Part shown: positions 20,126-39,845 of the stretch, piece by piece
Numbering within the stretch: the first letter of the stretch is position 1
How the letters are laid out: every line of letters begins with the position of its first letter
DNA from: a virus
Virus record (IMG/VR): IMGVR_UViG_3300044959_000131
Span: 64,001 to 128,000 of that record
Strand: one strand, 5' to 3'
Length of the DNA: 64,000 nucleotides
Notes under the pieces: generated by a model
Told to the model about the DNA's origin: nothing
Seen by the model: the letters and a program-made list of their open reading frames with translations, nothing else
Databases searched by the model: none
Made by a program: the position numbers and the translations under genes

Positions 20126-20160
20126 TGAACCTCCGAATGATAAGTCCGCACTGCAAAGTA

Positions 20161-20170
20161 CTTATCCCGA
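20161..20170 (-). promoter_or_regulatory. TCGGGATAAG motif at the head of the replication module
   Basis: In the divergent intergenic gap, 36 nt upstream of ATG 20125. Confidence 0.65.
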
Positions 20171-20201
20171 CAGTTTGGCCTTTATTGGTAACCCGTTTTG
20201 A

Positions 20202-20231
20202 TTGACCGAGACCCTGAATAGGGCTTAAACT
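20202..20231 (+). promoter_or_regulatory. Sigma70-like promoter facing the virion module
   Basis: TTGACC-N18-TAAACT, about 30 nt before ATG 20263. Confidence 0.5.
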
Positions 20232-20262
20232 GGGAGAGATAACTCCACTGCAGGAGAAACAA

Positions 20263-22112: not shown

Positions 22113-22174
22113 CACCATCGGTCCGGTCAAGTGGTTTGATTACATGAATCGGTAAGTTCTTCAAGGGTTTATAA

Positions 22175-23110
22175 GTGCAAAATCCAGAACTCGACTTGTT
22201 TGAGCGCTTGAAGGGCGTAGCTAACGTCAAGCCAACGGCTCCTTCAGAGGGGTCCGCGATGGAAGAGGAGTTGAAAAAGTCGAACCCAGACTATTCGACT
22301 CCTCTCTCCATCAGCAACCTCTTCACTCATCACGATGTTCATCCAGTCGTTCTGGATTTTGCTCTCCTCAAAGCGTTCGGCACCGATTGGTTTGGATGGG
22401 ATACGACGACGGTCTTTCAGGAAATAAAGAGAGTTTTCTCTTCGCAGATTTCTGAACACTCTCGGGCGAAGATTCAGGCTGTCAAGACCCTACATCTCGT
22501 AGGAACACCTTGGACAAGTTGGCAGGTCTTCGAGAAGATCATCCAAGCATTGAATAACAACATTCCTAGATGGGAATTGATGCAGGCACCGACTCTTGAG
22601 CAGCTCTACGCCGGCATCGACATCATGGATGAGATTCGTAGAGAAGAATTCGACGACGAAGTCAAGCAGTACATGGCTGCTGCCGTTCTGAACGAGGACG
22701 TTTTCTTTGTACCCCCTCCTCTCGACTTCATTCAGCTTGAAGTCAGTCAGCCGCACTATGTCTGCTTGGACTGCGGCAATCAAGATTCTGCCCTTTTCAG
22801 CGACGGCACTTGTGATACCTGCACACGCAAGTACGCTCCAGAGAACGGACTTTCGTTCAGGCCGGATCCTGATGTTCTAGACAGTGGTAAGGGTAAGAAC
22901 CTTAAGCTTGTGCTGAGGTTCGACCCGAGCCCAGTTGAGGCTCGGTGGAACCAGGTTTCGCATATGGCGAGTAAGGATGTAGATCTGCAAGAGAATCAGG
23001 TTGACATCCAAGTTGCAAAGCTGCTCGTAGCAAGAGATTACATGAACATTCGCAGGCGTCAACTTGCGGATCAGCTCATCGCATTGAAGTCTTGGTTGGG
23101 GTCCGCATGA
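22175..23110 (+). CDS. Hypothetical protein with a CxxC...CxxC zinc ribbon (311 aa)
   Basis: CLDC...CDTC; lies in the cluster upstream of the portal. Confidence 0.8.
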   Translation: MQNPELDLFERLKGVANVKPTAPSEGSAMEEELKKSNPDYSTPLSISNLFTHHDVHPVVLDFALLKAFGTDWFGWDTTTVFQEIKRVFSSQISEHSRAKIQAVKTLHLVGTPWTSWQVFEKIIQALNNNIPRWELMQAPTLEQLYAGIDIMDEIRREEFDDEVKQYMAAAVLNEDVFFVPPPLDFIQLEVSQPHYVCLDCGNQDSALFSDGTCDTCTRKYAPENGLSFRPDPDVLDSGKGKNLKLVLRFDPSPVEARWNQVSHMASKDVDLQENQVDIQVAKLLVARDYMNIRRRQLADQLIALKSWLGSA

Positions 23111-23607
23111 ACATCCACATGATTTCTGCGTTCACAGATGAACTCGAGAAGATTGCCCTCACCGAACGTGGTGCCGAAGTTTTTAGGAAGCAGGTCAAAG
23201 AGTATCGAGAAAGGGCATCGAAGCCTGGATTCAAGCGATCGCAGCAACTGCCCGGTTTCTGGAAAGGTATCATCAATAACATCCGGGCTACGGGCCGTCG
23301 ATTCAAGAATCCGAAGATGATGCTGAAACGATTCAAATGGTCGCTCACGGCTCCAGGTGTACCTAGGTACATAAAAGCCCTATCTGGACTTGGAATTGCC
23401 TATGAAGCTCGCGAAGTTTTGAAGAAAGGTGATGAAGGGACTAGCAGACTGCGACGTGCTCTTGAGGGAGCAGGAGGTCTCATTGGTGGGACTGCAGGAA
23501 GGGGGATTACTGGTTCAATTGTTGGCGGCACAGCAGGTGCGTTAATTGGAAGCCAAGCTGGTAAGGTAATCGACAAGATTCGAGGCTACAAGCCACATAA
23601 AGAGTAA
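23107..23607 (+). CDS. Probable head-internal protein: AFTDELEKIA cassette, basic region and glycine zipper
   Basis: ATGA overlap with the upstream stop; C-terminal GAGGLIGGTAGRGITGSIVGGTAGALIG. Confidence 0.75.
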   Translation: MNIHMISAFTDELEKIALTERGAEVFRKQVKEYRERASKPGFKRSQQLPGFWKGIINNIRATGRRFKNPKMMLKRFKWSLTAPGVPRYIKALSGLGIAYEAREVLKKGDEGTSRLRRALEGAGGLIGGTAGRGITGSIVGGTAGALIGSQAGKVIDKIRGYKPHKE

Positions 23608-23613
23608 TCAACG

Positions 23614-25674
23614 ATGTCATTCGACAGCCTCAGCCTTGGATTTGGTGGAACTTCACGCTTTTCTGGTCAGCGTGGACGTACTGCGGACGGCATGTCACGG
23701 AGCGGTATTCGTTACCCGTCTCCGTTCTTTGACATCGGACATACCTACCTGCCGCCGTCCCTCAAGGCTCTTCTCAGGTGGTGTAGGTACTACTACCTCG
23801 TGAATCCGCTCATCAACGCGGTCATTCACAAGATGTCGGAGTATCCAATCACCGAAATTGTCATCGACGAAAAGGACCCCGAAATCAAAAACAAATGGGA
23901 CTCTCTCCTTGGAGAGATTCTTCGGATTCGTCCATTTCAAATAGAGGTTGGCCTGGACTACTACACATACGGGATGTGCATTGTCACGATTCACTTCCCG
24001 TTCGACAAGTTCCTTATCTGCAGGAACTGCGGATTCAAAGACAAGGCGACGAAGATCAACTACCGTTGGCGTAACCTCGACTACATTGTCGATTGCCCAA
24101 AATGCGGCCACTCGGGACCTGCAAAGGTTCAGGACTTCTACAAGCGAGATGTCAACGGCATCCGATTGATGAGGTGGAATCCAGAGTACGTGAACATCGA
24201 TCCGGCATTTGCTGGTGCAGATCCAGTCTACACATTCGAGCTCCCACTTCAGGTCCGGAATGACGTCATCCTCGGTAAGAAGAGTGTGCTCGACACCATC
24301 CCGGACACATTCATCGAGGCGATGAAGAGGAACAAGTATGTCCGTTTCTCAGACGACAACCTCTTTGTTTTCAAGCGGCCCATCATCAGCCAGAAAGATT
24401 CTGGTTGGGGTATGCCGCTCATCTTCCCTGTCCTCAAAGACACGTTCTATCTACAGATATTGAGGAAGGCACAAGAGGCTATTGCTGCTGAGCACATTGT
24501 TCCACTCCGAGTTCTCTTCCCACAACCCGGCTCTGCATCCTCGGATCCATACTCGACGATTTCACTCGACTCGTGGAAGAGCAGGATCGAAAGCGAGATC
24601 GCGAAGTGGAAATACGACAACAACTACATTCCTATTCTCCCTCTTCCAATCGGAAATCAGACCATCGGCGGGCAAGGCCGTGCGTTGATGCTTCACCAAG
24701 AGATGGAGGTCTGGTCTAGGCAGATCGTTGCTGGGATGGGTGTTCCGCAGGAATTTGTATTCGGTGGAATGCAGTACTCTGGATCCAATGTCTCGATGCG
24801 AATGGTCGAGAACATGTTTCTTGGGTACAGAACCGATCATGATTTGATGCTCAATCACTTTGCCATCAAGCGCATCGCTCATTTCATGGGGTGGCCGCCT
24901 GTGAAGGCACACATGAGACGATTCAAGATGGCAGATGACCTACAACGTTCAGCCTTCTTCTTTCAGCTAAATCAAGCTGGAAAGATTTCAGACCAGACGT
25001 TGCTGCAAGAAGTTGATTTCGATCCAGCAACTGAGGAGACTCGTCGCAAGATTGAGCTAGACAAGCAACTTGAGTTCAATCGCAAGATGCAAGTCGCTCA
25101 AGCTTCTATTCAGGGCGAGATGCAAATCGTTCAGGCTCGCTATCAAAAGCGGGTTTCAGAGCTTATGCAGCCTCCTGCCGAGAATATGTCTCCTGTAGCT
25201 CCTCAAATGGCTGAATCCGGAGGTGGTGCTCTAGTAGAGCCGCCTCCTCCAGAGAATCCTTCAGAGAACACTGAAGGCGGTCCAGTTACGACACCGGAAG
25301 GTGAAATGCTACCTGGTAAACAAGTCGACCCGGCCATGCCTTCTAATTCGACAGTGTCATTCGAGAATGCTCAGAGTGCTCCATCAGAGGGTATCCCACC
25401 AGAGATGATGAGCCCACTCTCGGCGAGCATGAAGGGCGGTGGATTCAATCTTCTCTATTTGGCACGACGTGCGGCAACCGCGCTTCTCAAGATGGATGAA
25501 GGTCAGAGGATGGCCGAGATGAACAACATGAAGATGACCAACCCTCAGCTATACAGCCTAGTATTACAGCTTTTGAATCGCGAAAGAGGATCGCAGGAGA
25601 ATCCTCTTGATGCTGTTCAAAGCCCTCAGCCGCAGATTAAGCCCTCACGTCGTGCGAGCTCAACTGGTGTTTGA
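23614..25674 (+). CDS. Portal protein
   Basis: PSPFFD...RWCRYYY..NPLINAVIHKMSEYP N-terminal pattern, LMRWNP, GWGMPLIFPVLK and QEFVFGG; size and context also fit. Confidence 0.8.
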   Translation: MSFDSLSLGFGGTSRFSGQRGRTADGMSRSGIRYPSPFFDIGHTYLPPSLKALLRWCRYYYLVNPLINAVIHKMSEYPITEIVIDEKDPEIKNKWDSLLGEILRIRPFQIEVGLDYYTYGMCIVTIHFPFDKFLICRNCGFKDKATKINYRWRNLDYIVDCPKCGHSGPAKVQDFYKRDVNGIRLMRWNPEYVNIDPAFAGADPVYTFELPLQVRNDVILGKKSVLDTIPDTFIEAMKRNKYVRFSDDNLFVFKRPIISQKDSGWGMPLIFPVLKDTFYLQILRKAQEAIAAEHIVPLRVLFPQPGSASSDPYSTISLDSWKSRIESEIAKWKYDNNYIPILPLPIGNQTIGGQGRALMLHQEMEVWSRQIVAGMGVPQEFVFGGMQYSGSNVSMRMVENMFLGYRTDHDLMLNHFAIKRIAHFMGWPPVKAHMRRFKMADDLQRSAFFFQLNQAGKISDQTLLQEVDFDPATEETRRKIELDKQLEFNRKMQVAQASIQGEMQIVQARYQKRVSELMQPPAENMSPVAPQMAESGGGALVEPPPPENPSENTEGGPVTTPEGEMLPGKQVDPAMPSNSTVSFENAQSAPSEGIPPEMMSPLSASMKGGGFNLLYLARRAATALLKMDEGQRMAEMNNMKMTNPQLYSLVLQLLNRERGSQENPLDAVQSPQPQIKPSRRASSTGV

Positions 25675-25695
25675 TGGCATCGTACTTCGAGGCCT

Positions 25696-25723
25696 AAAAA
25701 AGGTCGGACTACTCGTCCGCCTT
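25696..25723 (-). terminator. Terminator for the antisense zinc-finger island
   Basis: AAGG-CGGAC/GTCCG-A-CCTT stem with a T-run on the minus strand, overlapping the TAG at 25709. Confidence 0.55.
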
Positions 25724-25939
25724 CGGGAAACAACTCTTGATCTCTAACAGCTTGAGATGCGCTTGTCGGAAGTGCTCATTTATCTCGGCCAATCTCTGAA
25801 GTAGCCCTTCAGGAGCCCCTTGATGGTGTGCTCTCTGCCAGAACCGATACTGAGTCTTCCACATCGCTAGCGCATCTTCTGCGAATCGTTCGATGTCGTC
25901 CTGCCAGATTTGCTCTTCCAAGTCAGTCTTCTGGGCCAT
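25709..25939 (-). CDS. Small helical hypothetical protein
   Basis: MAQKTDLEEQIW...; start chosen to minimise overlap (the track starts at 25963). Confidence 0.65.
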   Translation of the reverse strand: MAQKTDLEEQIWQDDIERFAEDALAMWKTQYRFWQRAHHQGAPEGLLQRLAEINEHFRQAHLKLLEIKSCFPKADE

Positions 25940-26276
25940 CGAGCTGTGCCTCACACGCGGCACAATACCGTGCTGAGCTTAAAAGCTCTGAGTATGGAAC
26001 ACCGAACATGTCTCCTGTGAGTTCGTCGATGACGGCTTCGTACTCGTCTGTGCTATCGACGATGTTCATTACGAGGTATGCCACAGAACAGAGCTCGTGC
26101 ATGACGGCATCTCCTGTGGTGCTATCACCATCAACAACAATTGGCTGACCACTTTTTCGACCCTTCCCCAATACTCCGTGATGGATGTAAACGGACCTGT
26201 CGCCAAGAAATATTGGCCTATCACACCACTTGCACATGGTGTGAGAAGGAGGCTTGTACGGCAATTCTTCACCCAT
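25923..26276 (-). CDS. Zinc-finger protein (CxxC...HxxC plus CxxC)
   Basis: CKWC...HELC and CAAC; ATG 26276 overlaps the upstream stop. Confidence 0.7.
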   Translation of the reverse strand: MGEELPYKPPSHTMCKWCDRPIFLGDRSVYIHHGVLGKGRKSGQPIVVDGDSTTGDAVMHELCSVAYLVMNIVDSTDEYEAVIDELTGDMFGVPYSELLSSARYCAACEAQLDGPED

Positions 26277-26490
26277 CGATTCGTTCTCCATGCGCACCGA
26301 TGAGTGACATCGGAGCACCGCTCTTCACTGGACAGAGGTAGTGCGCATACCGCTCATCGGATCCATCGTCGAAACGTCTTCGTAGAAGTGTGAATTTAGG
26401 GTATAGATCTTCGTTCTTGAATCGATAGACTGTCAGTCGAAGAATCCAGTCGTCCTCCTTGAATTCTTCACCGCAGATGCAGCAGTTCAT
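26269..26490 (-). CDS. Zinc-finger protein (CxxC...HxxC)
   Basis: CCIC...HYLC; ATGA overlap with the upstream gene. Confidence 0.7.
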   Translation of the reverse strand: MNCCICGEEFKEDDWILRLTVYRFKNEDLYPKFTLLRRRFDDGSDERYAHYLCPVKSGAPMSLIGAHGERIDG

Positions 26491-26891
26491 GTTGTTCTTC
26501 TAAGAACGAGTTGAAGAACCATCGATCCCCATCCACATCGAGTGCATCCATCCAAGAATCGTTCTGGCTCAACCAACTCCCTGTCCTCAGGTGGACCGCG
26601 ATACCTGCTTGACTGATAAAACTTAGGTGTCCACCTTGGTGTATCTTTGGTCTCCTCTAGGCAGTGAACACATTCCCATCCAATCTGGAATCCTTCTGCT
26701 GCCCTCTCATTGCACCATCGAACGAGAAGCTCGCACTCTCCACAGTCGTACGCTTCATCGCATTTGCCTCGAATGAACGTTCTGGCCTCCTGAGTCTGTC
26801 GAAAGATGGGACGACCTTTCTGGTCGAACTGACCACCATTCGCTGCGAACAAAAGTGGGCAGAAGGCTACTCGGACCGGGTTTTCAGGCAT
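26487..26891 (-). CDS. Cys-rich zinc-finger protein (134 aa)
   Basis: FCP, KC..AYDCGEC...WC, CVHC and CTRC. Confidence 0.7.
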   Translation of the reverse strand: MPENPVRVAFCPLLFAANGGQFDQKGRPIFRQTQEARTFIRGKCDEAYDCGECELLVRWCNERAAEGFQIGWECVHCLEETKDTPRWTPKFYQSSRYRGPPEDRELVEPERFLDGCTRCGWGSMVLQLVLRRTT

Positions 26892-26975
26892 TTTGCTGGA
26901 GTTTTACTAGTGCCGCCGTAAGTCTGGCGGCGAGGTAAGTCATGAAGCTCAGAAAAAATGAAGCTAAGAAGAGTT

Positions 26976-27158
26976 TCATTCTTCCTCGGTCTCCGTCTCG
27001 TCGACAGCGTCTTCGTCGTTTTCTTCGTCTTGCTCAGTCGGATAAAGAATTTGCCCCAAGATCGAGTTCATCAAGTCTTCTTGGAACATGTCCAACTGAG
27101 TAACTTCTTTTGGCACTGTCAGGCCTCCGATTCTTGAGGCCAGCGTATCGCTGACCAA
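26976..27158 (-). CDS. Possible small protein with an acidic tail
   Basis: Ends EQDEENDEDAVDETETEEE. Start uncertain; 27089 or 27071 are also possible. Confidence 0.4.
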   Translation of the reverse strand: MVSDTLASRIGGLTVPKEVTQLDMFQEDLMNSILGQILYPTEQDEENDEDAVDETETEEE

Positions 27159-27161
27159 CTT

Positions 27162-27171
27162 CTTATACCGA
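27162..27171 (-). promoter_or_regulatory. TCGGTATAAG motif at the head of the antisense island
   Basis: In the divergent gap upstream of the RNAP gene. Confidence 0.6.
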
Positions 27172-27190
27172 GGCCTATTGAGGTTCTTCG

Positions 27191-27220
27191 TTGACGTTAT
27201 TTACGAGCAGACTGTATTCT
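27191..27220 (+). promoter_or_regulatory. Sigma70-like promoter upstream of the RNAP gene
   Basis: TTGACG-N18-TATTCT. Confidence 0.55.
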
Positions 27221-27314
27221 GCCGTCCAAGGCTCAACGACCTCAGATGCGTAGAGGTAGAGCCTGGCAAGCCATAACCCACCTACGCATAGTGGGCGACA
27301 TTAGAGAGGGCACC

Positions 27315-30300
27315 TTGTCGACGCTAACACCAGAGGGTTCTTTCGAAATTCTCAAGAACAACGTCGTACGCGCCATCTCTTCCTACTTCCCCTACGAGGG
27401 AAAACAGAGGAAGTTGGAGCTACACAAAGTCTGGGTTGATGACAAACTTCATACTGATGACATCAAGTCACAGACTGAGGCAAAGGACCTAGACAAGACG
27501 TGGGGCGTACCAGTCAAGGCAGATGTCTCTCTCGTCGACAAAACGACAGGCAAAGTCATCGATCGAAAGACGATGACCATTGCCAGATTACCGAAGATGA
27601 CGAACCGGTACGGGTTCATCGTCGATGGGAATGAGTACCAGATCGACCATCTCTTCCGTTTGAAGTCCGGGGTGTACGCCAGAATTCAGGACAACGGCGA
27701 CCTGGAGTCAGAGTTCAACCTCGTCAAGGGACCTGCTGGTAACAGGTTCTCAATCCTCCTTGAGAGAGAGTCCAAGAAGTTCTTCCTGAAGCAGGGGGAC
27801 GCAAAGATTCCACTATACCCAATACTCAAGTCTCTAGGTGTATCAGACGATGAGATTGAGAAGAGTTGGGGAAAGGAAATACTCGCTGCCAATCGACCAA
27901 AAACCGAAGAGAAGACCTTAAAGAGTCTTCAGACCTTTTGGAAGAAGACGTCGTTCGAAGACCAGACGGAGCCGAGTGATTTAGGTGGTTATGCCCGCTA
28001 TGTACACGACTTCTTCGATAAGACGGTCCTTCGACCAGACACAACAAAGATCACTCTTGGAAAGCCAGCAACTAAGGTTGATGGTTCTGTTCTTCTGACG
28101 GCCGCGAACAAGATTCTCGGTGTTTCTAGAGGGACCCATCAGCCAGACGATAGAGACAGCCTTGCGTTCAAGGAGATCGTATCGATAGAGGACTTCCTGC
28201 CAGAGAAGATTGAGCGATCCATGAGGACGATTCGTGGAAAGCTCCGTAACACGATTGACCTCAAAGACAAGAAATCTGTCTCTGAAGTTTTGTCTACTGA
28301 CCTTTTTGCTCGCCCAATCCGTGAGTTCTTCACAAAGGGCGGCTCTTTGACGGAGAGGCCTGACCAGACGAATCCTATTCAAATGATGTCTGGTCACAGG
28401 AAGACGACGTTGATGTCTTCCGACCTTGGAGGAATCAAGAAAGAACATTCCATCACGGATGAGATGCGTGTCATCAATCCGAGCCACTTTGGGTTTCTAG
28501 ACCCAATGCATACCCCGGAGTCAGAGAAAACAGGCATCACTCTACATCTGGGAATGGCGGCTAGGAAAAATGGAAAAGATCTTGAGACTCCTGTCTTCAA
28601 CGTCAAAGAAAACAAGATTCAATACCTAAATGCAACAGACTTTCATAACAGTCATGCTGTTCTACCAGACCAGGTTCGCTGGGTCGGTGGCAAGCCTGTT
28701 CCGATAGCCGAAAACGTCAAGATGAAGCTCCCAGGTGGGAGCATCGAGGTTCGACCATTCAGAGAAGCTCAATACGTCATGCCGTCCGCAAAGGGCATGT
28801 TCGACATCGCTTCGAATCTCATACCTTTCTTACCATCGAACCAAGGCAACCGTGTTTCGATGGCTGATAAGCAGATGGAGCAGGCCATCTCTCTAAAGTA
28901 TAGAGAGGAGCCTCTCGTACAAACCAAGACCGACCATGCGGACCCGAATCTGACATTCGAAAAAGTTCTCGGTGGGTTCACATCTCATAGAGCTCCAGTC
29001 TCAGGTAAAGTCGTCTCCGTAAAGAACGATTCAATTACCATCAGTGACGGTAAGAAAAAGCACCAAGTTCATCTCTATGAACACTTCCCCCTCAACGACC
29101 CAAAGGGGATGATGCACTCAGAGCCTGTCGTGAAGGTCGGAGACACGGTCCGACAAGGACAGGTTATTGCTGACAACAACTTCACCAAGAATGGAACGCT
29201 CTCGCTTGGAGTGAATCTTCGTGTCGGATACATCCCTTACAAGGGCTACAACTACGAAGATGGTATCGTTATATCTGAGAGCGCCGCAAAGAAACTCACG
29301 TCCGAACACCTCTATAAGAAGAAGATCGAACTCGATCCTGAGAACGACGTCATTTCAAAGAGCAAGTTCATCGCTTATGCTGCTACCAAAGCCAATCAGC
29401 TAACAAAAGAGCAGCTTGATCTATTGGACGATGATGGAGTCATTCGAGTTGGTTCCAAGGTTCGTCCAGGTCAAGTTCTGATTGCAGCAGTCGGTAAGAA
29501 CCTTACGACACGCCAAGGTAGTGCTCTCGCAGCTCTAGGAAAGAGGGCCTTTCAGCCGTACAAGGATAAGTCACTTGTATGGGACGAAGACCACGTTGGC
29601 GAAGTCGTAAAGGTCATCAAAGATCCATCTGGAAAAGGGGTCAAGGTATACGTCAAAACTGAAGAGCCACTGGTTGTAGGTGACAAGTTGTCAGGCCGTC
29701 ACGGTAACAAAGGAATCGTGACGATGATCCTTCCTGACCACGAGATGCCGTTCACCATAGACGCCGACGGAAAACGACGTCCACTTGAAGTCCTTCTCAA
29801 CCCAACAGGTGTTCCAACACGTATCAATGTTGGTCAAGTTCTGGAAACGGCGGCCGGTAAAATTGCTGAGAAGACAGGAAAGCCGTACATCGTCAATAAC
29901 TTCTCAGGCCCGAACACGAACTACCGTGAACAGGTACTGAAAGACCTTCGTGCTCATGGCCTTAGAGACGAAGAGCTTGTCTACGACCCAAAGGACCCGA
30001 AAAGGCCACTTGGCTCGGTTCTCGTCGGTCCTCAGTATCTTTTGAAGCTTAAGCATCAAGTTGAGAAGAAGCTCACAGTTCGTGGAGGTGGGACGGATGT
30101 TACCGGTCGTGGACTTCCATACGATATAGATAGGACCCCGACAAAGGGAGGAGAGAGAGGGGGCCAAGGCTTTGGAGCCCTCGACGTCTACGCCCTTCTT
30201 GGACATGACGCTCGCCATAATCTTCGTGAGATGGCGACTCAAAAATCCGACTTCCAAGACATGACGTTCTGGAACATGGTCCAAGAAGGCCATGAACCAC

Positions 30301-33300
30301 CTCCCCCGAAGCCGCCGTTCAGCTACGAAAAGTTTGTCAGTCTACTGAAAGGTCTCGGAGTCAACGTCGAAAAGAAAGGAACGGCTCTTCAACTCTCTCC
30401 ACTCACAGACCGTCATGTCATCGAGATGGCTGGAGGCCATAAGGGTGAGTTGAAGAATCCACATCTCGCCCTTCGAGCTAAGGACCTGAAAGAAGAACGT
30501 GGTGGTCTGTTCGACCCAGTTGCGACTGGCGGTATCGTTGGAGACAAGTGGAGCTATATCAAGCTCACGGAGCCGATGCCGAACCCAATCTTCGTCGGCT
30601 CAAACAACCGTCCTGGACCCATTCCGGCTCTACTTGGATTGAAGCTCAAAGAGCTTGATGAGGTCATGAAAGGCGTTCGACAGATCGACGGTAAGACAGG
30701 TGGCATGGCCATATACGATGCCTTGAAAAAGGTTGACGTCGACAAAGAACTCGCTGCTCTTCGTGAGAAGCTTCCTACACTCACAGGTGCAGCTCTCGAC
30801 CGTGCGAATAAGAAGTTCAAATATCTGTCGGCTCTGAAGGAAGCAGGTCTGAAGCCTCATGAAGCGTACGTCATGAACGTAGTTCCGGTCATCCCTCCGG
30901 TGTTCCGACCTGCTACCGTCACACAAAATGGCGATGTTCAGTACTCGTCTTTGAACGGACTATACAAAAACATCGCCATACTCAACAACAAGCTCAGCGA
31001 AGTAGATCCAAAGGTATTCTCTGAAGAACACAGGTCTCCTCTTCGCTGGCAGCTCTACGACAGCCTGAGGGCTCTTCAATCGGTTGGCGGTTCCGTCGGC
31101 TACGACATCGACTCTCCAGGAAGCAAGAGAAAGTTAAAGGGAATCCTCGACATCATAGGTGGAGGAGAGGGTGAGCAGCCGAAGGAAGGCTATTTCCAGT
31201 CCAAGCTGGTCAAGCGAAGGCAGAATCTATCCATCCGCTCAACAATCGTTCCAGAGCCAAAACTTGGAATCGATGAAGTAGGTATTCCAAGAGGCGCAGC
31301 GATGGAGTTGTACAAGCCATTCGTTGTAGCCGAGCTAGCTCACCACGGCTTTGATCCTCTATCTGCTCAGCAAGAGATGAGGAACGGAACGAAGGCTGCG
31401 TACGACGCACTTGAGAAGGTCATCAAGGAACGGCCTCTTCTTCTCAAACGCGATCCAGCTCTTCACAAGTTCTCGATCATGGCCTTTACACCTAGGCTCG
31501 TAGAGGGAAAGGCCATTCAGATTCATCCTCTAGTTACTGGTGGATACAACGCCGATTTCGACGGTGACACGATGGCCGCAACTGTCCCTCTAACAAGAGA
31601 GGCCGTCGAAGAAGCGAAGAAGATGTTTCCTTCGAAGAACCTCTTCTCCCCTACAACCGGTGGTGTAATGTATTCGCCGACTCAAGAAGCGCTCCTCGGA
31701 CTTCATCTTCTTTCGAAGTGGGGCAAGCCTATCGGCAAAACATTCTCAAACCCACTCGAGCTGAACAAAGCTGTTCAGAGAGGAGAGGTTCACCCAACAG
31801 ACGTCGTAAAGGTAGGAAACAAGGAAACGACATTTGGACGATTGCTTCTTGAGTCTAGAATGCCAAGGGACTTCTACCTCAATAAAGACATTCTCCACAA
31901 CCCATCATTCGTTATCGACAAGAAGACACTCAATAGCCAAATCATCACACCTCTTGCTAAGAATCACACTCGAGAATTTGCTTCCGTCGTTGACGAATTG
32001 AAGAATCTCGGAAATGAGTATTCCTTCAAGATGGGATTCTCTTTCGGACTCAAGGACCTCGAAACAATCCCTCAAAGGGACGTAATACTCAAGGGCGCAC
32101 ACAGAGAGGCCGAGGCTGCAAGACGCTCAATTAAAGATAAGGATGCGCTGAACACCAAGCTCATCGACATCTATCAAAAGGCGACAGCTAAACTTGAGGA
32201 GGCCGTAAAGAATACACCGTCCGATAATCGCCTCGCGACGATGGTTACCTCAGGAGCTCGCGGTAAGCTAGAACAGCTACGACAAATGATTGCTGCTCCG
32301 ATGTTGGTTCAGGATTCCCAGAACAACATCATCCCAACACCTATTACTAAGAGCTACGCAGAGGGTCTGGACATTGGTGACTACTGGCTCGCCCAGCACG
32401 GTGCGAGAAAAGGAACTCTTCAGAGAGTACTTGGAACTTCAGAGCCTGGGGTCGTCTCAAAGGACATCATGAATACAACGATGTCCACTCTCATCGTCTC
32501 ACCCGATTGCAAGACGAATCATGGCCTGCTGATGGATGTTACTCACAAGGATATCGTAGATCGATTCACTGCGAAGCCCTACAAGTTGAAGGATGGAACG
32601 ATCATCAAGGCAGGAACACTTCTAACTCCAGAGATTCTGAACCGACTCAAGAACTCAAAAATTGACAAGGTCCTGGTTCGAAGCCCTCTTAAATGCAATC
32701 ACGGAGATGGAATCTGCGCGAAGTGTTTTGGGTTGAACGAGTCTGGAAAGCTGCACGACGTCGGCACAAATATTGGCGTGCTCGCTGGTCAAGCTCTGTC
32801 AGAACCAGCCGTCCAAATGGCGATGGACGCATTCCACACTGGCGGAGTCGCAACGGGTCGTGGATCTCTGTCCGTAGATAGGCTCACTAGACTTGGAGAT
32901 ACCTTGAGAATGCCGAAGAAGTTGAAGAACTCGGCCACCCTAGCTCGTGTAAGCGGAAAAGTTACGGACATCAAAAAGGATGCCGTCGGAGGTGTCGACA
33001 TCTTCATTGGTGGAGAGAGGCACTACGTTCCAAAGCATCTCGTGTCTCCAGACATCAAGATTGGAACCGAGGTGAAGAAGGGCATGCCAATATCAAAGGG
33101 GTTTATCAACCCTCACCACCTCCTTCCACTGACAGACATCCATACCGTTAGAAACTTTCTCACAGACGAGATGTACAGCGGACTGTATGAGAAAGAAGGT
33201 GTTAGAAAGAGAAACGTCGAAGTAGTGGTACGTGCTCTTACCAATCTCACGAAGATAAAGGATCCAGGTTCGAGCACATTCATACACGGAGATGTGGCCC

Positions 33301-33575
33301 CTACCTCTATCGTTGAGGAGTTCAACCGTAACCTGCCAAAGGGAAAGAAGCCAATTGTTCATGAGCCCATGCTGAGAAGCATTGAACAGGTCCCATTGAT
33401 CGGTTCTACAGACTGGATGGCTCGATTGAACTACCGAGAGCTGCACAACACAATACAGCAAGCAGCGGCTCAGTCTTGGAAGTCCGATATCCACGGCAGA
33501 CATCCAATTCCGGGTCTGGCGTTTGGTGCTGAGTTTGGGAAGCCGCCGCCCGGCAAGCCGAAGGGTGCCTACTGA
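27315..33575 (+). CDS. rpoBC: Single-polypeptide two-barrel RNA polymerase (beta-beta' fusion)
   Basis: Beta motifs GDKLSGRHGNKG, LLNPTGVPTRINVGQ, YLLKLKH, GGQGFG. Beta' motifs RSTIVP, KRDPALH, catalytic NADFDGD, SGARG, RSPLKC...CAKCFG and trigger loop GQALSEPAVQMAMDAFHTGG. No internal stop. TTG 27315 follows GAGAGGG (the track starts at ATG 27246). Confidence 0.95.
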   Translation: MSTLTPEGSFEILKNNVVRAISSYFPYEGKQRKLELHKVWVDDKLHTDDIKSQTEAKDLDKTWGVPVKADVSLVDKTTGKVIDRKTMTIARLPKMTNRYGFIVDGNEYQIDHLFRLKSGVYARIQDNGDLESEFNLVKGPAGNRFSILLERESKKFFLKQGDAKIPLYPILKSLGVSDDEIEKSWGKEILAANRPKTEEKTLKSLQTFWKKTSFEDQTEPSDLGGYARYVHDFFDKTVLRPDTTKITLGKPATKVDGSVLLTAANKILGVSRGTHQPDDRDSLAFKEIVSIEDFLPEKIERSMRTIRGKLRNTIDLKDKKSVSEVLSTDLFARPIREFFTKGGSLTERPDQTNPIQMMSGHRKTTLMSSDLGGIKKEHSITDEMRVINPSHFGFLDPMHTPESEKTGITLHLGMAARKNGKDLETPVFNVKENKIQYLNATDFHNSHAVLPDQVRWVGGKPVPIAENVKMKLPGGSIEVRPFREAQYVMPSAKGMFDIASNLIPFLPSNQGNRVSMADKQMEQAISLKYREEPLVQTKTDHADPNLTFEKVLGGFTSHRAPVSGKVVSVKNDSITISDGKKKHQVHLYEHFPLNDPKGMMHSEPVVKVGDTVRQGQVIADNNFTKNGTLSLGVNLRVGYIPYKGYNYEDGIVISESAAKKLTSEHLYKKKIELDPENDVISKSKFIAYAATKANQLTKEQLDLLDDDGVIRVGSKVRPGQVLIAAVGKNLTTRQGSALAALGKRAFQPYKDKSLVWDEDHVGEVVKVIKDPSGKGVKVYVKTEEPLVVGDKLSGRHGNKGIVTMILPDHEMPFTIDADGKRRPLEVLLNPTGVPTRINVGQVLETAAGKIAEKTGKPYIVNNFSGPNTNYREQVLKDLRAHGLRDEELVYDPKDPKRPLGSVLVGPQYLLKLKHQVEKKLTVRGGGTDVTGRGLPYDIDRTPTKGGERGGQGFGALDVYALLGHDARHNLREMATQKSDFQDMTFWNMVQEGHEPPPPKPPFSYEKFVSLLKGLGVNVEKKGTALQLSPLTDRHVIEMAGGHKGELKNPHLALRAKDLKEERGGLFDPVATGGIVGDKWSYIKLTEPMPNPIFVGSNNRPGPIPALLGLKLKELDEVMKGVRQIDGKTGGMAIYDALKKVDVDKELAALREKLPTLTGAALDRANKKFKYLSALKEAGLKPHEAYVMNVVPVIPPVFRPATVTQNGDVQYSSLNGLYKNIAILNNKLSEVDPKVFSEEHRSPLRWQLYDSLRALQSVGGSVGYDIDSPGSKRKLKGILDIIGGGEGEQPKEGYFQSKLVKRRQNLSIRSTIVPEPKLGIDEVGIPRGAAMELYKPFVVAELAHHGFDPLSAQQEMRNGTKAAYDALEKVIKERPLLLKRDPALHKFSIMAFTPRLVEGKAIQIHPLVTGGYNADFDGDTMAATVPLTREAVEEAKKMFPSKNLFSPTTGGVMYSPTQEALLGLHLLSKWGKPIGKTFSNPLELNKAVQRGEVHPTDVVKVGNKETTFGRLLLESRMPRDFYLNKDILHNPSFVIDKKTLNSQIITPLAKNHTREFASVVDELKNLGNEYSFKMGFSFGLKDLETIPQRDVILKGAHREAEAARRSIKDKDALNTKLIDIYQKATAKLEEAVKNTPSDNRLATMVTSGARGKLEQLRQMIAAPMLVQDSQNNIIPTPITKSYAEGLDIGDYWLAQHGARKGTLQRVLGTSEPGVVSKDIMNTTMSTLIVSPDCKTNHGLLMDVTHKDIVDRFTAKPYKLKDGTIIKAGTLLTPEILNRLKNSKIDKVLVRSPLKCNHGDGICAKCFGLNESGKLHDVGTNIGVLAGQALSEPAVQMAMDAFHTGGVATGRGSLSVDRLTRLGDTLRMPKKLKNSATLARVSGKVTDIKKDAVGGVDIFIGGERHYVPKHLVSPDIKIGTEVKKGMPISKGFINPHHLLPLTDIHTVRNFLTDEMYSGLYEKEGVRKRNVEVVVRALTNLTKIKDPGSSTFIHGDVAPTSIVEEFNRNLPKGKKPIVHEPMLRSIEQVPLIGSTDWMARLNYRELHNTIQQAAAQSWKSDIHGRHPIPGLAFGAEFGKPPPGKPKGAY

Positions 33576-34657
33576 TGGCCGTTACACATCAAGGATTAGT
33601 TGGTGCTTACGTCGAGTCTGGAAGAGTTCTGGACGTCGACATCAGCAACTACACCCTGACGGTGACTACGCAGTACTCCAAGAAACCACAGACTGGAATA
33701 ACTTGGTCGAGCCCCTATCTCCACTTTGCAAACGGAGAGGGTGTGTACATCATGCCAGAGGTCGGAAGCCTCTGCTGGATTTGTTTCCCATCCGACGGAA
33801 ACAGACCATTCGTTCTTGGATGGGCGCCAGCTGGGGACGAAGGCGACTACCGCTCACGTAGACAGTCCCTGAATCCCGGGGACATCTATCTTGGAACCCG
33901 GGACGAGAACTTCATGATTCTAAGACGGGGAGGAATCGTTCAGATCGGCGGAGGACCTCTCTGTCAGAGAATGTTTCTGCCGGTGAATAACACGATCAGG
34001 GATTTCTGCGAGAACTACGCTCTCAAAACAATTGGTGGAGACCTTACTTGGACTGTCGAGAGGACCGAGAACAGTACAGACGGAAAGAGACCAGCTGTCT
34101 TATCTCTTCTAGCTCGTGAAATGGCAAATGACGCCAAACCCATTGCAGAGCTTCTCATTGGTTCCCACGGAAGTGGAGACAAGACTATCATCAGCCTGAA
34201 AATCAAGGAGTCTGGAGAGGATGGGGCAGCCACCAACATCGAGCTAAGGCTCGATAAGGACGGGAACGTGAAATGGGAAGTGAGGAAGGATGTTCAGTGG
34301 GAAGTCGACGGAAAGTACTCGATTCGGGCGAAGCAGGACGTCCTTTTCAAGAGCGACACCAAGGTCTCGATCGAAGGCGGCTCTACAATAGAAGTAACTG
34401 GTTCTTCTGGAGTAACAATCAGAGCATCGACAGGGATTGTAGAGATCGTCGGCTCACCGCTTGTCAAGATGAATTCGAGAGTAATGGTCGGAAATGCGCC
34501 GCAACCAGTTGCTCTTGCGCCACCACTTTTGACGTGGCTGGCCACGCACATACATAACATCATCGTACCAGTTCCTGGAACCCCAACAACACCACCAGTG
34601 GTTCCACCACCGATTCCGGCAATCACATCAACAACGTTGCTCGCAAGTCCTCAGTGA
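33575..34657 (+). CDS. Baseplate central spike (gpV/gp5-like)
   Basis: N-terminal OB-fold pattern (GRVLDVD...MPEVGS..W..F..G..PFVLG), repetitive beta-strand C-terminus and apex HIH motif. Confidence 0.8.
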   Translation: MAVTHQGLVGAYVESGRVLDVDISNYTLTVTTQYSKKPQTGITWSSPYLHFANGEGVYIMPEVGSLCWICFPSDGNRPFVLGWAPAGDEGDYRSRRQSLNPGDIYLGTRDENFMILRRGGIVQIGGGPLCQRMFLPVNNTIRDFCENYALKTIGGDLTWTVERTENSTDGKRPAVLSLLAREMANDAKPIAELLIGSHGSGDKTIISLKIKESGEDGAATNIELRLDKDGNVKWEVRKDVQWEVDGKYSIRAKQDVLFKSDTKVSIEGGSTIEVTGSSGVTIRASTGIVEIVGSPLVKMNSRVMVGNAPQPVALAPPLLTWLATHIHNIIVPVPGTPTTPPVVPPPIPAITSTTLLASPQ

Positions 34658-34667
34658 GGAGAAGCAA

Positions 34668-36716
34668 ATGCGTCCACTCTTCCTCGACAAGCTACAAGAG
34701 ACCGTAAACGAGTTCCGAAAAGAGTCTGGGTACATTTACCGTCTCTCTGAGGTTCCCGATAACTGGGCTCAAGAGATCGGTAGTGAGCTTTACAAGCAGC
34801 TGCCGTTCCTCTCGGACTACGAGGTCAACGTATCTATCGATAAGAAAGACCCGGGTCGTGGCTTCGCATTCGGCTACGCCGATGTGTCAAACAAAACCGA
34901 GCGCCCAGAAGTTGAGCACGAGGAAGCTGGTATTCCACATATCAGGATTCCAATCATCGCTGAGGAGCGTCAGCTCCGTCCGTTCTCTGTGTTCCTTGAC
35001 GGGGAACGTGTTCTACCGATGACTGAAGAGCGTGTCCGTGAGGCGCTCTTCAACCCGGCAACATTCGATCTATCAAACTCGGTTCCGAGGGACCCAAGCC
35101 TCGTCGAGCCACTCATGCCTCCTCAACGCTCAGGTATCGGGTTGGGAGGCGAGTATAAGATGGCCTCTATTGCACCGAAGTTAGGGTCGATTGATTCCTC
35201 AAAAAATCTCAGGTCGTCGACTATTTCTCACGGTTCCAATAAGACAGCTTCTCTCCTTCAAGCTATCGCTCCAACGATTCGCGAGTCAGACCGCGACAGA
35301 TTCGTCGAGAAGGTCGCTTCAGACCCGACCATCAGAGCCGGCTTTCGAAGGTCTGGTATAGCGGAACTTCTTATCGATGTCATGGACACGAAGCTTGCGT
35401 CCGAGAGCGATAGACTTTCCGCCCTCGCAGATATCATCGAGCCGTCGGTTGTGACTTTACAAAAGCTTCCAGGTGGGGACTTCATTGTGAAGTCCGCGAA
35501 CGTGAATGCCTTTGTTGGTGGCGATCAAGCTGCTGGTCAAGTGGTTCCTTTCGATGAAGTCGCGGAGGCCATAGGAAGAGACGCCGCCAAGTCTCTTCAA
35601 CCTGGACAGATAGCGACAGTTGTGTCAGACCCTGTTCAGATTGATGGAGATGACGCAAACGCCGTCTCTGACGTTTCTGAATTCGGGACATACAAAGTAC
35701 AAGATTCCAACGGAAAGCAGATGGAGGGGTGGGTATTTCCAGAACTCTTGAACTGGGACAAAGATTTCACTCCCCAGAAGACACGACTCTTTCTCAATGG
35801 AAATGTGCACTCTATTCAAGATAGCATCGTTGGAGAGAGGGTCGGCTCATCGTCCCGTATTCCAGAAGACATTCCAAAAGGAGAAGGTGTATTTCGGCCT
35901 GCTGACGGTCGTGTAGCCACGGCTCCCATTACAATTCAGTACGGAACAACGAATTCACAAGGCATCCACACATACGTTGGCACTGACTCTTTTGGGAACG
36001 AGATCAGGGTATCGTTGGTGCCACACCTAAAGAAACCGCAGCGCATCTCTGACAACGAGTTTGCTTTGCCGAAGGATTGGGGCTTCACGAGACTGAATAA
36101 GAGGGTAAAGCTTGTCTCGAATGAGAACGCTTTTGGCCTCTCCAAGAAAGTCAGCAAGGAAAAGACTTCCGCCACCCTCTTCTATAACGGCTCGTTCAAC
36201 ATAACTGGCGGCTGTGGCTTGGACAAGATCTCATCCGACCTCAGATATGACCTGGATGCCGTCGGAGCCGAGTTCATCTTAGGACTACTCGGTGTCGACG
36301 GCGTGACGGCAAAGCAGAAAGTTGCAGAAGCCCGCAAAGTCGGATTCGTCAAGCTGTCCGGTCTACGAACCATCAGGACTCTTTCCGAGCGTTATCAGCA
36401 AGCAGTCAAAGAAGCTTCGGCCTTCCTGCACAAAATCCCAGACTTGAGGAGAGATCTAATCAAAGAGGCGGCCGCAATCGAGGATCAAGGAACTGTCGAT
36501 AAGGTCTTGGCGCTCAACTTCATCAATCCGGAGAACCTGTCTACGTTCATCGAATACCTGCCAGAGCTTGAGCAGACAAGCGAAAGAATGGCAGAGATGG
36601 TGTTGGCTGGTTACCTCGGGATGAAAGAAATCCCTCTTGGTGCAGTAGAACGCTCAATGCGAAACATGGAAGAAGTAATTCAAGGTCTCAAAGCAATCCA
36701 GCATTCTCACGATTGA
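34668..36716 (+). CDS. Probable virion structural protein (682 aa) with many K-x-A motifs
   Basis: GAGGAG site; KMAS, KTAS, KVAS, KLAS, KSAN, KEAS and KEAA. Confidence 0.8.
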   Translation: MRPLFLDKLQETVNEFRKESGYIYRLSEVPDNWAQEIGSELYKQLPFLSDYEVNVSIDKKDPGRGFAFGYADVSNKTERPEVEHEEAGIPHIRIPIIAEERQLRPFSVFLDGERVLPMTEERVREALFNPATFDLSNSVPRDPSLVEPLMPPQRSGIGLGGEYKMASIAPKLGSIDSSKNLRSSTISHGSNKTASLLQAIAPTIRESDRDRFVEKVASDPTIRAGFRRSGIAELLIDVMDTKLASESDRLSALADIIEPSVVTLQKLPGGDFIVKSANVNAFVGGDQAAGQVVPFDEVAEAIGRDAAKSLQPGQIATVVSDPVQIDGDDANAVSDVSEFGTYKVQDSNGKQMEGWVFPELLNWDKDFTPQKTRLFLNGNVHSIQDSIVGERVGSSSRIPEDIPKGEGVFRPADGRVATAPITIQYGTTNSQGIHTYVGTDSFGNEIRVSLVPHLKKPQRISDNEFALPKDWGFTRLNKRVKLVSNENAFGLSKKVSKEKTSATLFYNGSFNITGGCGLDKISSDLRYDLDAVGAEFILGLLGVDGVTAKQKVAEARKVGFVKLSGLRTIRTLSERYQQAVKEASAFLHKIPDLRRDLIKEAAAIEDQGTVDKVLALNFINPENLSTFIEYLPELEQTSERMAEMVLAGYLGMKEIPLGAVERSMRNMEEVIQGLKAIQHSHD

Positions 36717-36756
36717 CTAGGAAATAGACGTAACACAAACTTAAAGGAGAAAAACA

Positions 36757-37836
36757 ATGCTCAAGCCGAAGCACCTCACACACCTCATTCTCCCTACCGT
36801 AGGTGCTGTCGGTGGTGGACTATCCTCACATCATATAGCCAAGAAGAAGATTGAGAGTTCCCCTAAGTTTAAAAAGCAGCTCGAGTCTAGACCAGGAGGG
36901 TCCAAAAAGTACATCGCGTCGAAGACTATAAGAGGTGCTCTTGGTGGATTGGGTATTGGAGCTGGCACTGAGCTATCTCGTTCCTTGTATGGTCTACGAA
37001 AGTCTCTCATCAGAACAGCAGTTCCAAAGGCTAGAGTTACAAAGGATAGATTCGGAAAGGCGAAATCAGTCATTCCAGTTCCAGATTGGTTGAAGGGAGT
37101 AACGACAAAGGCAGAAGCTAAGAAGAAGTACCGAGAGATGGCAAAGAAGTACCACCCAGATCGTAACCCTGGTGACAAGAGTGCCGAAGAGAGGTTCAAG
37201 GATATTGCGAGTCAGTGGAAGAGTTTCACAGAGAGTGATGAATTCAAAAAGCTCGGCTCTTCTATGTACGCGATCATGAAGCACATTTCTGGTGGACCCA
37301 TCATGAAGAACATCTCTCATGGTGGTTCTAAGGGACCTACAGAAGCAGCTGCACAAGTCGCGTCTGTAGCAGCAAAGTCCAAAGAGATGAACAAACTGAA
37401 AAAGTTCTTCTGGAGAAACTTTCGCAAACGCAGGTTGAAATACTATATTGGACGTCCTCTACTCAGCGTACCAATTGCTGCATCCACAGCTGGTGGTGCC
37501 GTTTTAAAAGGTATACAATCGATCACGCCAGAGGATCGTAAGAAGAAGCGTGCACTTAAGGCTTTTGGGAAAGGCGCTATCGAAGGTGCGGCTATTGGTG
37601 GACTAGGTGGTCTTGCAATTGGAGGGGTTCTACATCAAGGTCATAGACTATTACGTCACAGCATTCGTGATTCGTATCGAAATCTGAAAAAAGCTATCAA
37701 CTTTAGGGAGAGGTATATTCAAGACATGAGAAGTAGAGGACAGAGCGTACCGACTAGTGAGCTCTCCGGCCTAGATGCTGATAAGAAACGGTTAGAACGC
37801 CTAAAGAAAATCCTCTTTCCAAAGAGTAAAGAATAA
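36757..37836 (+). CDS. J-domain (DnaJ-like) protein flanked by glycine-zipper hydrophobic segments
   Basis: AEAKKKYREMAKKYHPDRNPGDKSAEERFKDI with intact HPD; AAGGAG site. Confidence 0.85.
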   Translation: MLKPKHLTHLILPTVGAVGGGLSSHHIAKKKIESSPKFKKQLESRPGGSKKYIASKTIRGALGGLGIGAGTELSRSLYGLRKSLIRTAVPKARVTKDRFGKAKSVIPVPDWLKGVTTKAEAKKKYREMAKKYHPDRNPGDKSAEERFKDIASQWKSFTESDEFKKLGSSMYAIMKHISGGPIMKNISHGGSKGPTEAAAQVASVAAKSKEMNKLKKFFWRNFRKRRLKYYIGRPLLSVPIAASTAGGAVLKGIQSITPEDRKKKRALKAFGKGAIEGAAIGGLGGLAIGGVLHQGHRLLRHSIRDSYRNLKKAINFRERYIQDMRSRGQSVPTSELSGLDADKKRLERLKKILFPKSKE

Positions 37837-37838
37837 GT

Positions 37839-38696
37839 ATGAAACATCCAGCCGAGACATTCATCAAGTACCTCCTCATCAAGGATAAAGATGTCACGGA
37901 TGCAGAGGTGCTTAAAACGTTGCAGGACTGGGGATTCCTCTCTCCACACGACAACTATCTTGGATTCTTGAGGCAGAAGATTTCGAATGTCCCTGCTAAC
38001 TTCGACCCTACGAACCGTTTGAGCCGAACATCAATGAACTATCTCCGCGAGCACGGGGTGTTCGAGCTCTTTTTCCCGACGGCGGCGACTCACGAGGCTT
38101 GGGACATTCTCGGCGACCCATTCAAGAGACTCCAGGTCGAGCAGGTTCTTCTTGCTCGACTCGACCGTAAATCGGTAGCAGCACGACTCAACAAGAAGTA
38201 CAACTGGCACCTCACGGCCGAAGGCCTCTCTGCATTTCACGACTTCTTCTGGAACGTGAAGTCGATGTCATGGGATGAGTGGGGACGGTTCCTATTTGGC
38301 CGATCAATGATGTACGAGAGGTACCTTGGTCTGTTACAGGCGTCCCCTCAGCTTGCGTTTTTCCATCTCAGGCTTGAGCAGACGATCGAGTCGAAGGACA
38401 TGATCAAACGTGCTCAAGAGATTGCTTACTTCACTCTCGAGGAAGTCAGTCAAAAGCCAGGAACCGGGCCGGACAAGGTGAAGGCCATCGGTGTTCTCGG
38501 AAAGACAATCGTTGAATGTCACGAAGCCCTCTCGACTTCGGACATGGCTCTCAAAGACATTCTCAAGAACTTCGAGAGATTCCGTATGGAGCACCCACAG
38601 GTACAGCCACCAGACATCAAGTCGCTTGCTCCTAGAGGCAACTTCAGTGGTAGTGGGGTTGAGGAGAAGACGAGGAATACGAATTCTGAGTCATAG
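37839..38696 (+). CDS. Hypothetical protein (285 aa)
   Basis: Operon-packed helical ORF. Confidence 0.8.
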   Translation: MKHPAETFIKYLLIKDKDVTDAEVLKTLQDWGFLSPHDNYLGFLRQKISNVPANFDPTNRLSRTSMNYLREHGVFELFFPTAATHEAWDILGDPFKRLQVEQVLLARLDRKSVAARLNKKYNWHLTAEGLSAFHDFFWNVKSMSWDEWGRFLFGRSMMYERYLGLLQASPQLAFFHLRLEQTIESKDMIKRAQEIAYFTLEEVSQKPGTGPDKVKAIGVLGKTIVECHEALSTSDMALKDILKNFERFRMEHPQVQPPDIKSLAPRGNFSGSGVEEKTRNTNSES

Positions 38697-38723
38697 TCCC
38701 ACTGTATTGAAAATGGTCGTCCT

Positions 38724-39842: not shown

Positions 39843-39845
39843 AAG

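Follow-up and report, generated by a model that had tools for sequence, protein, structure and literature searches.

Our analysis showed that the 64,000-nucleotide stretch studied here (positions 64,001-128,000 of the virus record IMGVR_UViG_3300044959_000131; hereafter the window) carries a gene whose predicted product is a complete bacterial-type RNA polymerase (RNAP) core, with its catalytic elements intact and the beta subunit fused head-to-tail to beta' in a single chain. The record is a virus genome of 176,945 bp (~177 kb), rated 93% complete, and contains a single match to an RNAP of this kind. As the original prediction, made from the sequence of the window, had claimed, beta motifs and then beta' motifs follow one another in one uninterrupted open reading frame (ORF): in the ORF listing and translation of the window, the frame runs without a stop from 27246 to 33575 on the plus strand (2109 codons), and all the motifs quoted by that prediction were found in it. 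Residues are numbered below from the ATG at 27246, that is, along this 2109-residue frame (P0001). The gene itself most likely spans 27315..33575 and encodes 2086 amino acids. This start, a TTG, is preferred because a ribosome-binding site is found there (GAGAGGG, five bases upstream), with nothing comparable at the ATG at 27246, and because the alignments of homologues begin at about residues 20-27 of the query; several relatives are exactly 2086 amino acids long.

The order of the domains along the chain is that of beta followed by beta'. Pfam recognizes Rpb2 domains 2, 3, 6 and 7 (residues 179-1005) and then Rpb1 domains 1-5 (residues 1194-1889), with E-values down to 3e-63, while NCBIfam gives a match to rpoB over residues 281-1042 (E 1e-116) and to rpoC (TIGR02386) over residues 1145-2084 (E 9e-164). 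The best matches in the PDB are bacterial beta' and beta chains, both by sequence and by the fold of the predicted core, with bacterial beta' chains as the top phmmer matches of the beta' half (E 3e-119). This domain order, together with the invariant motifs described below, bears out the original prediction of a single-chain beta-beta' enzyme with a near-cellular core in a tailed phage. The chain is also, as had been remarked, much shorter than its cellular counterparts, at 2086 residues compared to 2749 for Salmonella beta plus beta' (1342 + 1407), because inserts, parts of the lobes, the ends of beta' and a four-Cys zinc-binding domain are reduced or gone. The E. coli-type inserts are absent from both halves: SI2 (beta 932-1047) is not present in the alignment of the family hidden Markov model (HMM) to Salmonella beta 84-1339, nor is the SI3 insert of the trigger loop, found between beta' residues 949 and 1149. 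The beta lobes are reduced, and the first 15 or so beta' residues and the beta' tail past residue 1347 are gone. Aligned to Salmonella beta', P0001 lacks about 27 residues over C70-C88 of the N-terminal zinc domain and has a short loop with no Cys instead.

The catalytic parts of the chain are strongly conserved. In an alignment of 39 family members that are 50-87% identical, on which all statements of invariance in this text are based, both barrel motifs, the bridge helix, the trigger loop and the second zinc site are invariant. Residues 812-823 satisfy the beta barrel consensus GDKxxGRHGNKG with its lysines, YLLKLKH is found at residues 931-937 and the trigger loop reads AMDAFHTGG at residues 1859-1867. 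The second zinc site consists of C1755, C1817, C1824 and C1827, all four of which are invariant across the family. The flap and the clamp-helix hairpin, the docking site of sigma region 2 in bacteria, are likewise kept and family-invariant; both align to their bacterial counterparts and are shortened. In a structure model of the core (see below), helices 676-693 and 701-719 correspond to residues 1235-1278 and form this hairpin.

The two halves are joined without a seam. The C-terminal helix of Salmonella beta (...SFNVLLKEIRSLGINIE, ending at residue 1338 of 1342) aligns to residues 1027-1042 and beta' begins directly after it, at about residue 1046 by eye; by local alignment, residue 1067 corresponds to beta' residue 36, with a score of 60 for the beta' N-terminus versus 29 +/- 5 for shuffled sequence. 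The alignment leaves no linker between the beta and beta' parts, and F1025, K1029, F1030, G1038, G1045 and P1052 are invariant around the junction. The fold of residues 560-1560 predicted by AlphaFold2 using the 39-sequence alignment (mean predicted local distance difference test score, pLDDT, of 78; predicted template modelling score, pTM, of 0.51) has a helix followed by a two-strand hairpin at this point, with pLDDT values of about 68-92 in 10-residue blocks. It is hardly credible that the fused frame is an artefact, whether through two genes being joined by an assembly or frameshift error or through mis-binning of bacterial rpoB-rpoC DNA: the identical junction, with its invariant residues, recurs in dozens of independent contigs from different samples, genes for a phage portal, hub and terminase flank it, the 177-kb record is a virus genome rated 93% complete, and identity to bacterial rpoBC does not exceed about 34%. 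The recurrence of the junction rules out the read-mapping error that had been named as an alternative from the start.

The fused gene is widely distributed among phages. A protein search yielded at least 120 clusters among the matches listed, nearly all of them of about 2080-2130 residues, with 49-94% identity and on contigs of up to 220 kb, and more than 500 related loci are present in IMG/VR. These comparisons mark out a large clade, strongly conserved, whose phages have genomes of about 180-220 kb. Gene structure was inspected in 69 near-complete loci, 62 of which have a single ORF across the whole query. A further two (L053 and L087) have single genes interrupted by in-frame TGA only, and five (L054, L076, L079, L083 and the Vibrio phage D69) are split, all at about residue 1525, as is the gene of Salmonella phage Arash; a split at the cellular beta-beta' border was seen in 0 of the 69. 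In the two loci with TGA codons (L053:6154-11925 and L087:6091-11997), two of the in-frame codons align with the family-invariant tryptophans W208 and W1009, which suggests that these phages read TGA as an amino acid. In L083 (5722-17115), which belongs to a 219-kb relative, the RNAP is spread over three ORFs with breaks at about residues 975 and 1525 of P0001. The first break falls within the beta part, 70 residues ahead of the cellular beta end, and the last ORF, of 1458 amino acids, probably carries an insert. Inteins of about 320-520 amino acids are present in 23 of the listed homologues (e.g. P0002, P0004, P0010, P0031, P0066, P0081 and P0089) at four fixed sites, equivalent to residues ~426 (HTPESEKTG), ~858, ~1441-1449 (after NADFDGDT; 17 of the 23) and ~1865 (in the trigger loop) of P0001. 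The longer homologues are the intein-bearing ones, up to a maximum of three inteins in the 3387-residue P0089, and insertion at four conserved sites is as expected of an essential enzyme.

Phylogenetic relationships were examined with a FastTree LG+gamma tree of 79 sequences and 1797 columns, calculated with no outgroup from a server alignment and MAFFT FFT-NS-2. The phage family forms one clade (support 1.0), distant from every sampled bacterial phylum, and the naturally fused Helicobacter enzyme branches among the bacteria. The split forms (Arash, D69 and four contigs) form one nested subclade (support 1.0), with the fused lineages L066 and L042 branching below it (support 0.84 and 0.98); on this topology, therefore, the fused state is ancestral in the phage clade and fission is secondary. 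The fission point is near that of the cyanobacterial rpoC1/rpoC2 division, the corresponding NCBIfam models ending at residue 1490 and beginning at residue 1556.

The beta-then-beta' order of the chain and its sigma70-type partner (see below) point to a bacterial-type ancestry, but the idea, also part of the original prediction, that the gene was captured from a bacterial RNAP is not supported in the form in which it was put; no donor lineage emerged. P0001 is about 29% identical to bacterial beta or beta' and equidistant from all phyla, and in a scan of the rpoB-rpoC loci of species representatives the best identities, of 27-34%, were distributed over many phyla (Saccharibacteria, Ignavibacteria, Bacteroidota, Bacillota, Actinomycetota and others). 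If a host rpoB-rpoC operon had recently been captured and then fused and trimmed, this would account for the order of the two parts, which is that of the bacterial operon, and for the sigma70-type nature of the partner. We nonetheless consider such a recent capture very improbable, since no bacterial lineage is nearer than these 27-34%, since the phage family is a single, long-branched clade (3.1 substitutions per site between P0001 and bacteria versus 1.0 between bacterial phyla, i.e. about three times the distance) and since this clade is itself deep, with members down to 28-35% identical to one another. The gene would thus be either ancient or fast-evolving, and the tree, having no outgroup, is compatible with an origin inside or beside Bacteria.

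The original prediction was silent on a phage sigma factor, the gene for which lies outside the window, and on the place of the polymerase gene in a virion module. A diverged sigma70-family ORF of 321 amino acids is located at genome positions 38074-39039 (L004:1066-2031). It has a match to Sigma70_r3 that is over the cut-off (27.9 bits), matches to the RpoD, FliA and RpoS models across regions 2 to 4 that are under the equivalog cut-offs (E 2e-9 to 1e-5) and a match to RpoS in the PDB (E 3e-5). Orthologues were found in all five related genomes tested, one of them being Gp10 of Arash, which is annotated as a sigma factor. Weak Sigma70_r4 matches at genome position 175221 and at window positions 46999-47070 were rejected as ordinary helix-turn-helix or excisionase-type proteins. 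Searches of the genome with the Pfam models of alpha (PF01000, PF01193) and omega (PF01192) gave no match, whereas all 14 control genomes were positive. The model of the T7-type single-subunit RNAP (PF00940) gave no match in the genome either, a result of little weight as the control genomes also lack this family.

It is possible that the fused chain provides the catalytic core only and must recruit the alpha dimer and omega of the host, and perhaps its sigma factor, in order to assemble and to initiate transcription. The core is colinear with bacterial beta/beta' almost throughout, so that surfaces for binding alpha and omega could persist, and the RpoBC fusions of Helicobacter and Wolbachia still employ alpha and omega. 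Nevertheless, such a hybrid enzyme strikes us as unlikely: an identity of about 29% and an equal distance to all phyla argue against co-adaptation to the alpha subunit of one host, the phage retains its own sigma factor across the clade, and the polymerases of phiKZ and AR9 function without alpha and omega (PMC7598289; PMC13282480).

The RNAP gene lies within a structural block on the plus strand, with a portal-like gene upstream and a baseplate hub/spike-like gene downstream (Table 1), the ATG of the latter overlapping the RNAP stop codon (TGATG). Of the informative related loci, 55 of 66 have a portal homologue upstream of the polymerase, and 45 of 63 have a hub homologue downstream (directly adjacent in 27). 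Arash has the same order of portal (gp204), small gene and polymerase. In mass spectrometry of Arash particles, one piece of the polymerase (Gp206) gave 3516 spectra, the most of any protein, compared to 1333 for the major capsid protein, while the other piece (Gp216) ranked fifth with 1210 and the sigma factor Gp10 gave 467 (PMC10585845). The virion link provided by these data is suggestive rather than conclusive, because the preparation, in which 116 proteins were detected, also contained ribonucleotide reductases and other metabolic enzymes (PMC10585845).

Our preferred reading, which we consider somewhat better than an even bet, is that the fused chain is a sigma-dependent RNAP that is probably packaged in the virion. 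The fused chain and the phage sigma factor would form a minimal holoenzyme, allowing transcription of the phage without the host polymerase. The enzyme would be made late, alongside the virion proteins, incorporated into the particle and injected together with the DNA to start early transcription, much as in N4, phiKZ and crAss-like phages with their virion polymerases. The covalent link may stand in for the scaffolding role of the alpha dimer and secure a 1:1 stoichiometry of the two halves through packaging, ejection and refolding. A more far-reaching version, in which the chain and the phage sigma70-family protein make up a complete two-component, alpha- and omega-free holoenzyme that travels in the virion and is responsible for transcribing the entire phage genome, is put forward tentatively, as a proposal with the odds somewhat against it. 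If true, it would be the first sigma-dependent phage-encoded RNAP of the cellular type and a natural minimal bacterial transcription machine.

A number of points weigh against a packaged, self-sufficient enzyme. The negative result for alpha and omega comes from HMM searches, which very diverged versions of these subunits could escape. The phage sigma factor could instead redirect the host core enzyme, in the manner of T4 gp55. The Arash particle preparation may hold carry-over of abundant late proteins. The beta' zinc domain touches promoter DNA in bacteria, and with its loss initiation may differ. Lastly, the global confidence of the AlphaFold2 model of the core is moderate, as seen from its pTM.

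The carry-over problem bears directly on another explanation, in which the polymerase acts outside the virion: the host RNAP would read the early genes, the fused enzyme, produced in the course of infection, would take over the middle and late ones, and its position among the structural genes would reflect late co-expression. This would fit with the presence of a single RNAP gene, whereas phages of the phiKZ type need both virion and non-virion sets (PMC7598289), with the many metabolic enzymes in the Arash 'virion' proteome, which hint at contamination, and with a sequence element, GG[GT]ATAAG, that occurs before minus-strand non-structural blocks and contains TATAAG, loosely resembling the host -10 box. 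We find it a rather unlikely account all the same, given that an RNAP piece tops the Arash particle spectra, above the major capsid protein, with the sigma orthologue present too, that the portal-RNAP-hub order and the overlapping stop and start codons are kept across a very diverse clade, and that promoter-like sites with the sigma70 consensus are depleted around the gene (5 in window positions 20000-39999, compared to 13.9 +/- 4.4 in shuffled sequence).

The element came from a search for promoters. Exact-word searches (k = 8-10) found no repeated intergenic promoter; with one mismatch allowed, GG[GT]ATAAG was the only prominent word apart from ribosome-binding sites, and the remaining candidate words were noise. 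It has 16 copies in the genome where about 11 are expected by chance, and all 16 are on the minus strand (at 2259, 3071, 15443, 20161, 27162 and 46370 in the window). The total count is little above chance, but the strand bias is striking. Half of the copies are in crudely defined intergenic regions, 11-116 nt upstream of minus-strand genes, and one is in the 420-nt gap that immediately precedes the polymerase gene, directed away from it. We consider GG[GT]ATAAG to be a candidate promoter element for the non-structural gene blocks.

Table 1. Polymerase gene, its parts and its structural neighbours in the window (aa, residues of P0001).
Feature	Window position	Strand	Basis or remark
Single-chain beta-beta' RNA polymerase gene	27315..33575	+	2086 aa from TTG; longest frame from ATG 27246
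Beta-like half (aa 24-1045): reduced lobes, fork region, flap, beta double-psi barrel, C-terminal clamp part	27315..30380	+	Pfam Rpb2_2/3/6/7; family HMM
Beta barrel active-site motif GDKLSGRHGNKG, aa 812-823	29679..29714	+	G812-K822 invariant in 39 family members
Seamless beta-beta' junction, aa 1025-1052: last beta helix and strand lead to first beta' strand via short turn EKKGT	30318..30401	+	Pairwise alignments to Salmonella beta C-terminus and beta' N-terminus
Beta'-like half (aa 1046-2109)	30381..33572	+	TIGR02386; PDB phmmer
Deletion site of beta' N-terminal four-Cys zinc-binding domain (GGLFDPVATGG ... KWSYIKL)	30501..30566	+	Alignment to Salmonella beta' 36-139
Clamp-helix hairpin, shortened, aa 1234-1283	30945..31094	+	Alignment to beta' 263-310
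Catalytic Mg-binding motif NADFDGD, aa 1435-1441	31548..31568	+	Family-invariant; where most inteins of homologues are inserted
Bridge helix (GARKG, aa 1719-), second zinc site, trigger loop (aa 1840-1870)	32400..32846	+	Salmonella beta' alignments 762-809, 801-900, 912-942
Portal-like gene, 1.6 kb upstream of RNAP gene	23614..25674	+	PHROG portal families, E 4e-6
Baseplate hub/spike-like gene	33575..34657	+	Pfam Phage_base_V OB domain, 24.7 bits, over cut-off

Two further genes in the window may hold inteins or inserted endonucleases. The terminase large subunit ORF is unusually long (963 amino acids, window positions 42967-45858) and has a second, PhoH-like match in the middle of the protein, while an ORF of 1674 amino acids (window positions 49249-54273) has HNH-endonuclease, ribonucleotide-reductase-like and DNA-polymerase-like matches.

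Our literature search found no description of a full, near-bacterial-type beta-beta' fusion in phages; a paper on 'moraphages' (PMC12619734) was considered as a description of this lineage and set aside, those phages having no RNAP. Reviews from 2020, 2021 and June 2026 describe the cellular-type RNAPs of phages as split and lacking sigma, alpha and omega (PMC7598289, PMC7824862, PMC13282480). The family studied here departs from two of these rules, in having one near-complete beta/beta' chain and in being accompanied by a sigma70-family protein. Should the chain prove active with neither alpha nor omega, it would reveal how small a part of the bacterial machinery suffices for promoter-specific transcription and would give structural studies and orthogonal gene expression a bacterial-type polymerase encoded by one gene. 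The family also bears on the debate over whether phage polymerases are ancient relics or captured genes, with fusion here coming first and fission later, and its cultured relative, Salmonella phage Arash, opens the design to ordinary testing.

The nearest phage records in GenBank are those of Vibrio phages D69, D181 and D148 and Salmonella phage Arash, with 32-33% identity. They belong to the same family (monophyletic, support 1.0), have the same seamless junction, a portal gene just upstream and an orthologous sigma factor, and are the only relatives for which there are experimental data, in the form of virion proteomics (PMC10585845). None of them is a close, characterized full-length homologue, the finding that the original prediction had said would refute it: the nearest, Arash and D69 at about 32%, have their polymerase in two pieces and are known from annotation and virion proteomics. 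In phages of this type (Gp206 and Gp216 in Arash), one gene encodes beta and the N-terminal half of beta' (~1525 amino acids) and the other the C-terminal half of beta' (~610 amino acids), whereas the gene in the window is unbroken at residue ~1525. The cut lies after the beta' barrel and the two pieces are 0.6-4.8 kb apart. The split in Arash is real, because nine genes, some of them on the other strand, separate the two pieces. The possibility that a group I intron had split the gene in D69 and Arash was considered and discarded, as no Rfam match reached the gathering threshold in L001 and L002. The gap between the two RNAP genes contains two tiny ORFs in D69 (L001) and an annotated homing endonuclease in D181 and D148, which hints that a mobile endonuclease caused the fission or exploits its site. 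The Arash paper annotates the two pieces, found in particles, as beta subunits, and does not remark on the fusion (PMC10585845).

The cellular RpoBC fusions of Helicobacter and Wolbachia (NF007172, NF011417) likewise have beta and beta' head-to-tail in one ORF, as we confirmed for Helicobacter anseris (L113), but these are cellular enzymes of about 2840-2890 amino acids, whereas the phage-borne P0001 is about 800 amino acids shorter and lacks the beta' zinc domain. P0001 scores far below the cut-offs of the two fusion models (577 bits versus 5372, and 502 versus 4632). Engineered fusions of the E. coli subunits, said to have been made by Severinov and colleagues in 1997, were reportedly functional as well.

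Among phages, the RNAPs of the phiKZ/AR9 type are also two-barrel enzymes related to beta/beta' that lack alpha and omega, one set of which is packaged in the virion (PMC7598289, PMC7824862). They are made up of four or five polypeptides, occur as two paralogous sets, lack a sigma70 homologue and have diverged much further, in contrast to the single ORF, single copy and sigma70-family ORF of the phage in the window; P0001 matches their PHROG families with E-values of 1e-26 to 1e-8, compared to 4e-137 for the PHROG of its own kind. Both barrels are also found in one polypeptide in gp66 of crAss-like phages, in YonO and in the tape-measure-fused RNAP of P23-45, of which gp66 and the P23-45 enzyme are delivered with the virion (bioRxiv 10.1101/2020.03.07.982082; PMC10770324). 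These proteins have little beyond the barrels and DxDxD and use no sigma factor, whereas P0001 keeps essentially every conserved region of beta and beta'. The original prediction was thus right to set the enzyme apart from both the split phiKZ/AR9 polymerases and the very diverged crAss-type chains, on account of its single ORF and near-cellular core. A whole bacterial-type beta' of about 1130-1190 amino acids, 26-28% identical to the beta' half of P0001, occurs in Rhizobium phages (Kleczkowskaviridae) and in Vibrio phage Va2, but the genes of RHph_TM30 (L170, 1127 amino acids) and Va2 (L171, 1192 amino acids) are separate beta' genes that are not fused and fall on the bacterial side of the tree. 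PHROGs 25354 and 24349, both labelled 'unknown function', are families of beta'- and beta-like proteins of broadly this kind. As judged from these sequence comparisons, the fused enzyme is a real, well-conserved and widespread phage polymerase design, akin both to the cellular-type RNAPs encoded by other phages and to the natural RpoBC fusions of bacteria.

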